The position numbers were made by a program. A stretch of 64,000 bases of DNA from an uncultured delta proteobacterium (GTDB taxonomy: Bacteria; Desulfobacterota; Syntrophia; Syntrophales; UBA8958), in the NCBI GenBank assembly GCA_903885795.1, contig CAISJV010000066.1:132763-196762 (forward strand), in the 5' to 3' direction. Positions 12,001 to 15,000 of the stretch are shown here, one piece after another; the first letter of the stretch is position 1, and each line of letters opens with the position of its first letter.

Positions 12001-15000
12001 CATTACCGGCCGGAAACAATCACCAGAATCATCAGGGCTGAGATGCTGAAGGCCCGCTGGCGGATTATTACCCTGCAACTGTTCCTGCCTTTTATGAAAA
12101 ACAAAGAAGAAATGCTGGATAAACTTGATAAATACAAGGTTATTAAGGAAGAGTTGGGGCAGCGGAAGGTCTCAAAGGAGTGATCCTTGACAGAGTGATC
12201 CTTGACTGTTGACAATAAATCGGTATCGGCATAGAATAAAAATCATTACTGAAAAGGAGGGTTCACATGAAACGCCTGCTTCTTTTATCGTTTGCCATCG
12301 TTTTCTTCACCGCGGCATGCGCCACAACAGAAAAAGCGAACGTCTCGCCTGTGCAACTGGCGTTAGAGGGAAAAATGGAATTGATTCTCGATCCGCCAGA
12401 ACCCGGTGAGATGAGAATAGGCAATTTAGACAAACAGGAAGTATCCGTTCCGCTGGCCGCTCGGGTTTTTGCGGTGGCCTTTTCTCCAAGCGGCCGCTAT
12501 GTCGCTTCCGGCCTTGATGACAAGACCATAACCATCTGGGATGTTTCGCAGGGGAAATGCGCGCATATTTTGAAAGGCCACAAAGGATCGGGATCCACTG
12601 CCGGATCCATTGCCTCCCTGTCCTTTTCACAGGATAGCACCAAGCTCGTTTCGGGAAGTTATGACGGCGAGGTTACGCTGTGGGATATCCTGACCGGCAA
12701 AGAAGTCATGACATTTCAAACTCACGCAAAGACCGTCAATACAGTTTCTATTTCTCCCGATAACCGCGTTATCGTCTCGGGAAATGACTCCCAGCAGATT
12801 ATGGTCTGGAATATGTCCACCAGCGACAACAGGACATTTAAGACGGCCGAGGGGGTAAGCATGACCAGGACAGTGACTCCCTATGCCTTTTCCCGTAACG
12901 GCCGGCACGCACTCTCGACAGATGAGAGGAACTCCTTGATTCTCTGGGATATCTCATCGGGGAAAGAGGTGAAAAGGCTCTCAGGCAGTCATGGTGAAAT
13001 TACGGCATTGGCGTTATCACCCGACGGGTCACAGGCCCTCGCGGGAACTTCCGGCGGCAATCTGGTGATCTTCGACGTTGCTTCCGGCAAGGACATCCGC
13101 ACCTTAAAAGGACATCGCGGGCTGGTGCGCAGCGTGGTGTTTTCCAATGACGGTGCTTATGCCTTCTCAGGCAGCCATGATGATACGGCAAGACTATGGG
13201 AGATTTCCACCGGGAAAGAAGTTGGCCAATTAACGACAGAAAATCCCAAACAGATTAAAGCTGTTGCCATGTCTCCCGATCAACGGCTCCTGGTTACTGG
13301 AAGCATGGACGGCACAACCAGGATCTGGAATAGAAACACCTCCCGGGAAATCGCTAAAATGGTCAAGCTTGTCAAGTATTTACCGGCATTCTACGTCAAG
13401 GCCCGTGTGGCGGCAAAGGAAGAGGATTTCAAACCATTGTTCGACGCCTGGGTCGTTCTGACACCGGACGGATATTACACGGGGTCCCCAAACGCCCTTG
13501 AAAACATAAGCGTCATCAAGGGATTTTCTATGTACAAGATCGACCAGTTCTACGATGTCTTTTACCGCCCCGATATAATAATCGCCGGGCTGCGCGGTGA
13601 AGATACCCGGGGATTGATCACCCTTACCATGGAAGACGCATTGAAAAATCCGCCGCCCGAGGTGGATATCTCTTCGGTTCCCAAAAGTACGAACGAGGAA
13701 TTCGTGCGAGTCAGATACAACGTTTCCAGCGGTGGCGGCGGCATCGGGGAGGTTCGTGTTTTCCATAATGGAAAGTTGATTTATTCGGACGGATATTACA
13801 GATCCATTGTGAAAAAATCAGTGGATAAGGTCGCTTTGGCGTCCCTTAACGGCGCCGCAGTGTATCAGAGCATGCGCGCCATCACCATAAAAGAAAAAAC
13901 TCAAGCCGGCCCTGTGACCAGCAGCCCCATTATCAGCCAGACCAAGGGCGACTCCTTCAAAGGTGAGATCGCGGTGGAAGCGATTCCCGGAGTTAACGAG
14001 ATAAGCATTGCTGCATTCAACAAAGACAATACAGTACAGAGCAAGATGGAAACAGTCGCCTTTAAATCAACATTGCCGCCAAAGGAGCCTCATCTCTACA
14101 TCCTCGCCGTGGGAATCGACAAATACAAAGACGCGGACATCAATCTTGCGTTTTCAGCAAAGGACGCCCGGGACGTTGCCGGCAAACTGCTTGTCCAGAG
14201 CGTGGGTATTTATAAACGGGGAAATATCCACCCCCTGATCCTTGCGGACAAGGAGGCAACCAAGAAAAACGTCCTGAGCAGGATCACGGAACTCGCCGGC
14301 AAGATGAAGCCAACAGATGGACTGATCATTTTTGTCGCCGGGCATGGCGTCCTGTACCAGAATCTATACTATCTTATTACCCATGACTATAACGGTAACA
14401 TCGATGAAGACGCCATGATCAGCTCCAGCGAGATTATGGAAATGTCAAAAAAGATCAAATCCCTTAACCAGTTGTTCGTTTTTGATACCTGCCATGCCGG
14501 TGGGGTGGATTGGATCGTCAGCGGCCTGTACGATGCGCGCATGTCCATCCTGGCAAGGCAGATGGGGCTCCATATCTTCGCTTCGGCGAGCTCCATGCAG
14601 GAGGCCAGAGACGGCTACAAGGGTAATGGATTGTTTACCCATACCCTTCTCGACGGACTCTCTAATAACAAGAAATTAAATAAAAACAATGACGGGAAGA
14701 TCACCATCGAGGAGCTTGGAGAATACACAAAACTCGAAACGGCGGATATATCAAGGAAAACGGGTCATGAACAGGTTCCCATGATCATCAACTTCGGCAA
14801 TGATTATCCGCTGTATGAATTGCGCTAAGTCTAAAAAAAATGGCCAACTATTCGACATGTATATATTAGGCATCTCCGCCTTTTATCACGATTCCGCCGC
14901 CGCCCTCATCAAGGACGGTGTGATCGTTGCCGCCGCCCAGGAGGAACGCTTTACCAGAAAAAAGCACGATCCGGCTTTCCCGTCCCGCGCCGCCGCCTTC

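Follow-up and report, generated by a model that had tools for sequence, protein, structure and literature searches.

The gene at 12267..14828 (+ strand) of a 64,000-nucleotide stretch from an uncultured delta proteobacterium of the Syntrophales (contig CAISJV010000066.1, positions 132,763 to 196,762; this whole stretch is called the window below) encodes an 853-residue protein in which a WD40 beta-propeller precedes a C-terminal caspase-fold domain. Judged from its sequence, this protein is probably an extracytoplasmic C14B (metacaspase- or orthocaspase-like) cysteine endopeptidase with a preference for Arg or Lys, whose propeller would serve for recruitment. The gene is an ordinary member of a large, uncharacterised family that is common in uncultured anaerobes, and, as part of the same interpretation, it is likely to stand by itself, under a promoter-like site of its own, rather than to be a dedicated part of a polysaccharide pathway. 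The parts of the protein are arranged as follows.

12267..12320, + strand: putative signal peptide, aa 1-17 (MKRLLLLSFAIVFFTAA), and Cys18 of a lipobox-like T-A-A-C (PS51257-style match, hydrophobic core)
12321..12449, + strand: tether or linker between the putative acylation site and the propeller, aa 19-61, no domain match
12450..13331, + strand: seven-bladed WD40 beta-propeller, aa 62-355 (Pfam WD40, PDB 2YMU, seven repeats)
13332..13448, + strand: connector, aa 356-394
13449..13643, + strand: small conserved unit, aa 395-459, no matched fold (W395, TPDGYY, QFYDVFYRPDI)
13653..14078, + strand: predicted Ig-like, CARDB-like beta-sandwich, aa 463-604
14088..14825, + strand: peptidase C14 domain (caspase/haemoglobinase fold), aa 608-853 (Pfam, structure prediction, Foldseek)
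14163..14165, + strand: Asp633, candidate S1-pocket acidic residue, invariant in 11 orthologues (profile alignment to 6W8S)
14343..14345, + strand: predicted catalytic His693 (AGHG, within IIFVAGHGV)
14484..14492, + strand: Asp740-Thr-Cys742 (within LFVFDTCHAGG), predicted catalytic Cys and candidate pocket Asp, by alignment
14496..14552, + strand: conserved loop aa 744-762 (SGLYDARMS)
14679..14714, + strand: EF-hand-like 12-residue loop, aa 805-816 (NKNNDGKITIEE; Pfam EF-hand_1, E 0.005)

The preliminary description of this gene, which was made from the letters alone, gave its coordinates exactly, and every element that it read in the protein could be recovered. It had pointed out a signal peptide ending in a lipobox-like FFTAAC with Thr at -3, about seven WD repeats including four quoted motifs, an unassigned middle region, and a C14 domain with an intact dyad. 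A signal-peptide-like N-terminus, all four motifs and an alignable dyad are present, and the fold prediction that it had suggested as a check yields a caspase fold matching GSU0716, MALT1 and caspases.

Catalysis by the C14 domain is predicted because a Pfam match above cut-off, a conserved dyad, an alignment to metacaspase motifs and fold matches agree. When the C-terminal 253 residues were scanned alone, Pfam PF00656 matched aa ~613-840 with 49.1 bits, its gathering cut-off being 21.4, and the match takes in positions 5-223 of the 233 in the profile, stopping just short of its end. An AlphaFold2 model of aa 360-853, built on an 80-sequence alignment, reached a mean per-residue confidence (pLDDT) of 77 and a predicted template-modelling score (pTM) of 0.79, with pLDDT mostly above 90 in the C14 domain. 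In Foldseek searches, this domain matched GSU0716 (3BIJ, E 7e-10), MALT1 (E ~1e-9), and procaspase-7 and caspase-8 (E 1e-6 to 1e-5), each with a probability of 1.00. His693 is found in 80 of 80 homologues and Cys742 in 79, the exception being P0052, which has Tyr at this position; Asp740 is found in all 80. The domain profile pairs AGHG with SGHG and DTCHAGG with DSCHSGG of Arabidopsis metacaspase-4 (AtMC4, 6W8S) and weakly matches yeast Yca1 and Geobacter GSU0716 as well. A single-sequence phmmer search of the PDB with aa 360-853 gave no caspase match, the best being cadherins (E 0.06); a 16-sequence profile was needed to reach the metacaspases there (E 8e-4).

The same alignment bears on the expected specificity. 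Asp633 is aligned with the Asp of 'CVND' in AtMC4, which we take to be equivalent to Asp95 of TbMCA2 and Asp365 of MALT1, and the AtMC4 Asp aligned with Asp740 presumably corresponds to TbMCA2 Asp211 and MALT1 Asp462. Asp95/Asp211 and Asp365/Asp462 are acidic pocket residues of TbMCA2 and MALT1, respectively (PMC4357240), the first of the TbMCA2 pair lying on helix alpha1 and the second two residues ahead of the catalytic Cys, and the characterised non-caspase C14 enzymes all cleave after basic residues, Arg or Lys (PMC5756287). Since both Asp633 and Asp740 align with presumed pocket Asp residues of such enzymes, a basic P1 residue would be expected.

Two loops of the C14 domain could be relevant to the control of activity. 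The loop right after the catalytic Cys is modelled with pLDDT below 50, and its residues Y755, D756, and R758 are invariant among the 80 homologues; it may be where the protein cuts itself, after Arg758, or may serve as a mobile substrate-binding loop. At the EF-hand-like loop, most homologues have D-x-N-x-D-G-x-[IV]-S-x-x-E, and Ca2+ binding there may be considered, if speculatively. In addition, a SASSxQEAxD motif at aa 773-782 resembles the 'QTSAD' motif of the metacaspase p10 domain, whose presence or absence distinguishes metacaspases from orthocaspases.

Sec-type export of the protein is well supported by the predictions. The N-terminus MKRLLLLSFAIVFFTAAC consists of a positive n-region, MKR, an 11-residue hydrophobic core, LLLLSFAIVFF (mean Kyte-Doolittle value of 3.05 in the best 10-residue window), and T-A-A-C18, and it fits the PROSITE PS51257-style lipobox expression. 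Export calls for the family were made with a signal-peptide heuristic and this type of pattern: 192 of the 238 Met-starting homologues (~81%) pass the strict heuristic, most of the failures being truncated proteins or mis-called starts, and a lipobox is present in just 27 of these 192. In the long forms of the family, an AxA-type site precedes a mature N-terminus with the conserved sequence EKPEIFVQLGH. Export is indicated by the shape of the signal peptide together with the lipobox-type match, by the proportion of positive homologues and by these AxA sites, and also by the CARDB-like and PDZ domains of the family, which are typical of extracytoplasmic proteins, and by the presence of only two Cys residues in the mature protein. 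As far as such predictions go, export is a trait of the family and lipidation is not conserved across it, and lipid anchoring is rated dispensable for the function of the family. The view that an exported WD40-caspase protein is unusual does not hold, given 1,450 clusters at E<=1e-30 in the searches described below and the share of homologues that pass the heuristic. Within the linker, only V29 and L33 are invariant among orthologues.

The propeller region could be delimited from the sequence into seven WD repeats (aa 62-92, 93-140, 141-182, 183-228, 229-270, 271-312, and 313-355), which end, in order, in WD, WD, WN, WD, FD, WE, and WN. Pfam WD40 (PF00400) matched with 167 bits over six stretches, the seventh repeat being degenerate, many other propeller families matched too, and the best PDB sequence match was the Nostoc WD40 protein 2YMU (E 1.5e-75). 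Seven tandem repeats are sufficient to close one predicted propeller.

Between the propeller and the caspase domain lie approximately 250 residues (aa ~356-607) without a significant Pfam or PDB sequence match, Big_7 (E 0.06) being the only one listed. AlphaFold2 splits this region into a connector, a small alpha/beta unit, and a beta-sandwich. The connector, with pLDDT of 32-43 over the first ~30 residues of the model, is missing from the consensus of the double-propeller forms and appears to be an insertion specific to single-propeller forms. No other part of the family is as well conserved as the small unit: W395, TPDGYY, and QFYDVFYRPDI are invariant or nearly so among the 80 homologues. 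Modelled alone, it reached a pLDDT of ~73, and it gave no PDB fold match (best E 2.3) and no Pfam match. The motifs of the small unit and the caspase domain occur together in 186 of 262 proteins, and 18 carry the small-unit motif without the caspase motif; in these proteins and 1,001 open reading frames of the examined loci, the unit is thus found mostly with the caspase domain, no search aimed elsewhere having been made. The sandwich, with pLDDT of 87-95 in its strands and a low-confidence (disordered) insert at aa ~515-551, was matched by Foldseek to the CARDB domain 2KL6 (E 2e-4, TM-score 0.60 on target) and also to the HPI S-layer protein 8CKA. The CARDB-like fold agrees with the weak Big_7 match.

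The elements of the gene are not a product of chance, because 2,316 homologues of the full protein score E<=1e-5, of which the best 120 are near full-length, mostly covering 90-100% of the query (range 76-100%) with 40-50% identity. Several of them bear the NCBI name 'caspase family protein', in Smithellaceae, Syntrophaceae, Nitrospirota, Geobacteraceae, Elusimicrobia, and Sideroxydans. An exhaustive search over cluster representatives (50% identity) with the middle region and caspase domain alone, and therefore without WD40 signal, returned 25,663 clusters at E<=1e-3, 10,850 at 1e-10, and 1,450 at 1e-30. In nearly all of the top 150, query residues ~35-494 match as a single stretch at the C-terminus of proteins of 800-1,400 aa. 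Size classes of the N-terminal part, read together with precomputed Pfam lists, suggest three forms: ~400 aa, consistent with one propeller, which is the type of the window protein and a minority; ~650-700 aa, consistent with two propellers, which is the commonest; and ~800 aa, consistent with two propellers and an N-terminal PDZ domain, which accounts for at least about a fifth of the members.

In a scan of one genome per species, 155 loci were confirmed and the best 79 were examined, with the lineage taken from the record title.

Syntrophales-type (Syntrophus, Smithella, Syntrophaceae and similar): 36 of 79 loci
Unclassified Deltaproteobacteria or Thermodesulfobacteriota: 23 of 79
Nitrospirota: 6 of 79
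Desulfonema or Desulfobacterales: 5 of 79
Geobacter or Desulfuromonadaceae: 5 of 79
Betaproteobacteria: 2 of 79
Elusimicrobia: 1 of 79
Unclassified Pseudomonadota: 1 of 79

All 79 are from metagenome-assembled genomes (MAGs), no cultured host being evident among them, and a 2012 survey counted zero caspase homologues for Syntrophus aciditrophicus SB, a type strain in culture (PMC3501461, supplementary file 2). Members of the family often occur in several copies: at least eleven assemblies give two loci each, and 111 open reading frames of the family cluster were found in 80 loci, with tandem neighbours included (for example, two on contig JACQWR010000018.1); no second copy of the family was found in the window. 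The window itself is Syntrophus-like, with 84-86% identity to two Syntrophus MAGs, whose loci are referred to as L003 (84%) and L004 (86%).

A working model can be proposed on this basis. Signal peptidase II would probably cut before Cys18, which would be acylated, and the ~45-residue linker would tether the protein to the periplasm-facing membrane. The propeller would act as a binding platform for a substrate or partner, a role suggested by the anatomy of the family, in which it is doubled in most members and, in some paralogues, supplemented with PDZ. The small conserved unit and the Ig-like sandwich would form a fixed stalk that couples the propeller to the protease, as is suggested by the fact that the middle region and caspase domain match as one C-terminal stretch while the N-terminal classes vary. 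The C-terminal domain would be the catalyst, through His693 and Cys742, and its acidic S1 pocket (Asp633/Asp740) would direct cleavage after Arg or Lys, not Asp. Ca2+ binding at the EF-hand-like loop, autoprocessing in the SGLYDAR-MS loop, or the two together could control activity. In strictly anaerobic Syntrophales and their relatives, the enzyme would probably act by limited proteolysis on proteins of the envelope or the extracellular space, in their processing, quality control or turnover. By analogy with gingipains and clostripain, the mostly anaerobic hosts fit an extracytoplasmic thiol protease.

The expression signals of the gene lie directly upstream of its start, which is the first start codon following an in-frame stop.

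12178-12191 and 12193-12206, + strand: perfect 14-bp direct repeat GAGTGATCCTTGAC, two exactly matching copies 1 nt apart
12209..12237, + strand: sigma-70-type promoter-like site TTGACA-17-TAGAAT, 11/12 matches, 30 nt 5' of the start codon
12256-12260, + strand: Shine-Dalgarno sequence GGAGG, 6 nt 5' of the ATG, evident in the sequence itself

The promoter-like site ranked at the top of a scan of 11100-17000. Its TTGACA hexamer, the 5' untranslated region, and the Shine-Dalgarno sequence are kept at L003, in the 84% orthologue, despite a different upstream gene. The direct repeat starts within the final codons of the GT2 gene that lies upstream, and a promoter-like -35 hexamer, distinct from the proximal TTGACA, overlaps with it; it has no further copy within the window and is not conserved at the L003 locus. 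It is a possible regulator site specific to the window. The GC content of the gene, 0.51, is typical of the host.

The preliminary description had placed the gene in a polysaccharide locus, and this setting is real in the window, which holds a polysaccharide-type cluster. Upstream of the WD40-caspase gene are genes for an NTP-transferase, a GHMP kinase, an epimerase, two GT2 (family 2 glycosyltransferase) proteins, a methyltransferase, Wzy_C, GT4, and another GT2 protein; downstream are those for a carbamoyltransferase, an SGNH-like protein, DUF5989, SxtJ, a GT-D-like protein, and Glyco_trans_1_2. The setting is not a property of the family. Nineteen neighbour proteins of the window were compared with the 79 loci by tblastn, and 1,001 flanking open reading frames were clustered de novo; neither approach revealed a family-wide conserved neighbour, glycan-related genes included. 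Only L003 shares the GT4, Wzy, GT2, and carbamoyltransferase genes, and the glycan neighbours were not found at L004 within the 5.5 kb available. The gene can be viewed as autonomous because its promoter-like site and 5' untranslated region are shared with L003 while the upstream genes differ, and because no neighbour is conserved across the family. The largest neighbour cluster, histidine kinases and response regulators, was rejected as a functional link, being generic and at variable distance.

Several observations weigh against the proposed interpretation or parts of it. The S1 pocket was assigned by a weak profile alignment (E 8e-4) and not by superposition. The EF-hand_1 match is below the Pfam cut-off, and the loop has Asn, not Asp, at position 1. 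Three ~50% orthologues (L005-L007) adjoin homologues of genes that lie further downstream in the window, namely the SGNH/GDSL-like protein (L005 and L006), a protein with about ten predicted transmembrane segments and tetratricopeptide repeats, hereafter 10-TM/TPR (L005-L007), and an AMP-binding enzyme (L005 and L007); an older, loose link of the family to envelope functions or glycoconjugates is possible. As for acylation, Thr at -3 falls outside the strict [LVI] lipobox consensus, and in the relatives P0002 and P0004 (88-89% identity) Tyr replaces Cys18. This Cys/Tyr switch looks like a real population-level alternation between lipoprotein and soluble periplasmic forms because it is seen in independent JGI and ENA sources. 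The same enzyme could thus be soluble in the periplasm, with signal peptidase I cutting at T-A-A↓C and Cys18 as the first mature residue, an alternative that we regard as possible though rather doubtful. It would account for the two Tyr-bearing relatives, for the non-consensus Thr, for the rarity of the lipobox among signal-peptide-positive homologues, and for the signal peptidase I-type sites of most long forms and of P0032 and P0045, which lack the lipobox Cys and have AGPASAA↓D instead. It is opposed by the PS51257-style fit of the window N-terminus and by the single-propeller proteins, of which six of eleven aligned, the window's own included, keep the Cys (the lipobox Cys is seen in P0003, P0006, P0017, P0019, P0020, and P0030). 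Five orthologues of ~50-62% identity have canonical lipoboxes (L-T-G-C, I-S-G-C or I-G-G-C) in the same register as TAAC, suggesting an ancestral lipoprotein state in the single-propeller subfamily. For the window protein, lipid anchoring at Cys18 is therefore the reading that we favour with some reserve; the anchor put forward in the preliminary description stands as a lipobox-type match in this protein, and it does not extend to close relatives with Tyr or to homologues with signal peptidase I-type sites.

The remaining alternatives concern the role of the protein. That it is a dedicated part of a polysaccharide or O-antigen-type locus, where it would, for example, act by processing or regulation on a glycoprotein product or on a protein of assembly or export, seems improbable. 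The gene lies between GT2/GT4/Wzy_C and the carbamoyltransferase-DUF5989-SxtJ-GT block, no terminator was found ahead of the carbamoyltransferase gene, the GT4 and carbamoyltransferase flanks are kept at L003, and some ~50% orthologues adjoin the SGNH-like and 10-TM/TPR proteins; however, the glycan genes are shared at one locus only and were not seen at L004 within its 5.5 kb, clustering gave no family-wide glycan neighbour, the promoter-like site is its own and conserved, and the GC content of 0.51 compared with 0.42-0.43 in part of the glycan block (6-10 kb) suggests separate histories. An extracytoplasmic effector of cell death, fratricide or defence, attacking envelope proteins of its own cell or of neighbours when triggered, would be in line with the surface cell death or fratricide role that Asplund-Samuelsson et al. 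proposed for extracellular prokaryotic caspase homologues (PMC3501461), with the paralogue expansion and tandem copies, which resemble conflict systems, and with a match to the generic 'caspase' model of PADLOC. This reading is nevertheless quite unlikely, as the PADLOC matches are at domain level only, without defence partner genes nearby, the protein does not belong to the EACC1-associated caspases (NCBIfam NF047832, 50.6 bits against a cut-off of 140), and no linked NTPase or other sensor and no gasdermin-like or toxin neighbour were found. A non-catalytic scaffold or pseudo-protease, whose caspase fold would only bind ligands, finds a precedent in the pseudo-orthocaspases, which are common in bacteria, 8.6% of bacterial orthocaspases being without a conserved dyad (PMC6426788), and in the Tyr of P0052; it is very improbable in view of the dyad in 79 of 80 diverse homologues and the pocket Asp, which imply selection for catalysis. 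Finally, the preferred protease model might be extended to a sensor-protease, in which the propeller binds an envelope or extracellular ligand or partner and controls the caspase domain via the small unit and the Ig-like stalk. Activation would come from Ca2+ and/or self-cleavage in the SGLYDAR-MS loop, an apoptosome-like logic outside the cytoplasm, largely confined to uncultured anaerobes, where a periplasmic thiol protease can survive. We consider this extension an unlikely one.

Among known systems, the protein resembles the orthocaspases and metacaspase-like C14B proteases (for example, Microcystis MaOC1 and the WD40-bearing forms of cyanobacteria, Trichodesmium TeMC9 and those of Gloeobacter), which share the p20-type fold, the His-Cys dyad, the acidic pocket Asp, the predicted basic P1, and WD40 accessory repeats (PMC5756287, PMC3501461). 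In the described WD40 forms, however, WD40 is C-terminal and often follows NACHT, whereas in the window protein the propeller is N-terminal and the caspase domain C-terminal; the window protein is, moreover, predicted to be exported, carries the conserved unit and the Ig-like sandwich, and is of low similarity (Pfam 49 bits). According to the 2012 survey, WD40 accompanies prokaryotic caspase homologues more often than any other domain does (10.9%), and a signal peptide is probable in many of these homologues (PMC3501461). For archaea, orthocaspases have been reported that carry a Big_7 Ig-like domain at the N-terminus as well as an EF-hand motif, no WD40 propeller being described for them (PMC6426788); the weak Big_7 and EF-hand_1 matches of the window protein occupy the same relative positions, a likeness by position. 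The best structural match, GSU0716 of Geobacter sulfurreducens (TM-score 0.58-0.61 on target), comes from a related deltaproteobacterial lineage, but it has 17% identity, is a single ~285-aa domain without propeller or sandwich, and is uncharacterised. In the second-best match, the MALT1 paracaspase, an Ig-like domain adjoins the protease as in the window protein. MALT1 is Arg-specific, with Asp365, Asp462, and Glu500 in its pocket (PMC4357240), and differs in being eukaryotic, cytoplasmic, equipped with a death domain, and activated by dimerisation. Paracaspases have been reported as absent from prokaryotes by the criterion of Pfam Ig models (PMC6426788), and the sandwich of the window protein is CARDB-like and was not detected by the Pfam Ig models used for paracaspases.

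As exported caspase-fold cysteine proteases of clan CD from anaerobes, gingipains (C25) and clostripain (C11) offer a functional analogy. They are Arg- or Lys-specific and Ca2+-associated, and gingipain has an Ig-like domain (PMC4357240). They belong, however, to other clan CD families without a propeller and are not among the top 50 fold matches listed; gingipains, moreover, are secreted by the type IX system and have roles in nutrition and virulence. A further comparison is offered by a lipoprotein of Porphyromonas gingivalis, PorE (PG1058). It is described as a periplasmic component of the type IX secretion system that includes a WD40 beta-propeller among its domains (PMC12773672, PMC5053529), so that propellers can work in the periplasm; PorE has no protease domain, and its detectable likeness to the window protein does not go beyond the propeller fold class.

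No specific study of this architecture in Syntrophus, Smithella or the periplasm was found in the literature, the search of which did not extend to the supplementary architecture strings of the 2012 survey. The order of signal peptide, one or two N-terminal propellers, conserved unit, Ig-like sandwich, and C-terminal C14 domain is apparently not described in the searchable literature, nor are the abundance of the family in Syntrophales and relatives and the small conserved unit. Work on bacterial caspase homologues has so far centred on cytoplasmic, cell-death-type or defence roles, mainly in cyanobacteria, and in the present family a caspase-fold protease with one or two propellers would be located beyond the cytoplasm, in syntrophic and metal-reducing anaerobes, which matter in methanogenic and sediment communities; the origin of all examined loci from MAGs may help to explain the lack of study. 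If Arg/Lys activity and propeller recruitment are true, the family would join DegP, Prc, and Ctp as a new type of protease with a regulatory or processing role in the periplasm. The conserved 65-residue unit is a candidate for structural study, and the gene should not be annotated as part of a polysaccharide pathway by position alone.

Some further observations concern the N-terminus and the surrounding genes. The replacement of Cys18 by Tyr in P0002 and P0004 fits a single TGC→TAC change, as inferred from the protein. Assignment to a known anti-phage system of PADLOC-DB was considered and rejected: the 'caspase' model gave 55 bits, a WD40 segment matched a HEAT-ARM model of 1,972 positions, and no partners were present. 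The downstream block at 14857-18540 comprises a NodU/CmcH-type carbamoyltransferase, the SGNH/GDSL-like protein, and small DUF5989 and SxtJ-like genes, and suggests a carbamoylated, possibly O-acylated glycan product. Its member at 16834-17895 ('hyp353') is a transmembrane-anchored SGNH/GDSL-like protein with weak AlgX/GDSL matches. The carbamoyltransferase start was placed at 14857 by gene callers and by the conserved N-terminus MYILGISAFYHD, the mechanical open reading frame from 14800 overlapping the caspase gene by 29 nt; likewise, gene callers placed the GT4 start at 9990, the mechanical frame from 9768 overlapping Wzy_C. GC content is low at 6001-10000 (0.42-0.43) and 22001-24000 (0.40), compared with ~0.52-0.55 elsewhere; these stretches, which cover GT2, methyltransferase, and Wzy_C genes and the 10-TM/TPR protein, have the composition usual for glycan genes that are exchanged laterally. 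Unrelated housekeeping genes break up the polysaccharide locus: DUF2147 (21509-21982, - strand) and FolD (20650-21504, - strand) separate the glycan block, on the opposite strand, from the TPR membrane protein. The latter, of ~600-700 aa with C-terminal TPR repeats, matches Pfam and NCBIfam in its TPR part only and is encoded at the following positions.

22239-24323 of the window (7.4 kb downstream): 10-TM/TPR protein
12524-14323 of L005: 10-TM/TPR protein
5476-7281 of L006: 10-TM/TPR protein
12888-15026 of L007: 10-TM/TPR protein

Furthermore, a secreted DUF4384 protein of ~285 aa (Pfam, 78.8 bits) directly adjoins family members at four loci and lies 3.9 kb away at a fifth.

13363-14220 of L016: DUF4384 protein
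5287-6219 of L028: DUF4384 protein
1390-2253 of L047: DUF4384 protein
13335-14231 of L076: DUF4384 protein
8652-9500 of L018: DUF4384 protein

Fusions of DUF4384 with caspase homologues of bacteria have been reported (PMC6426788).

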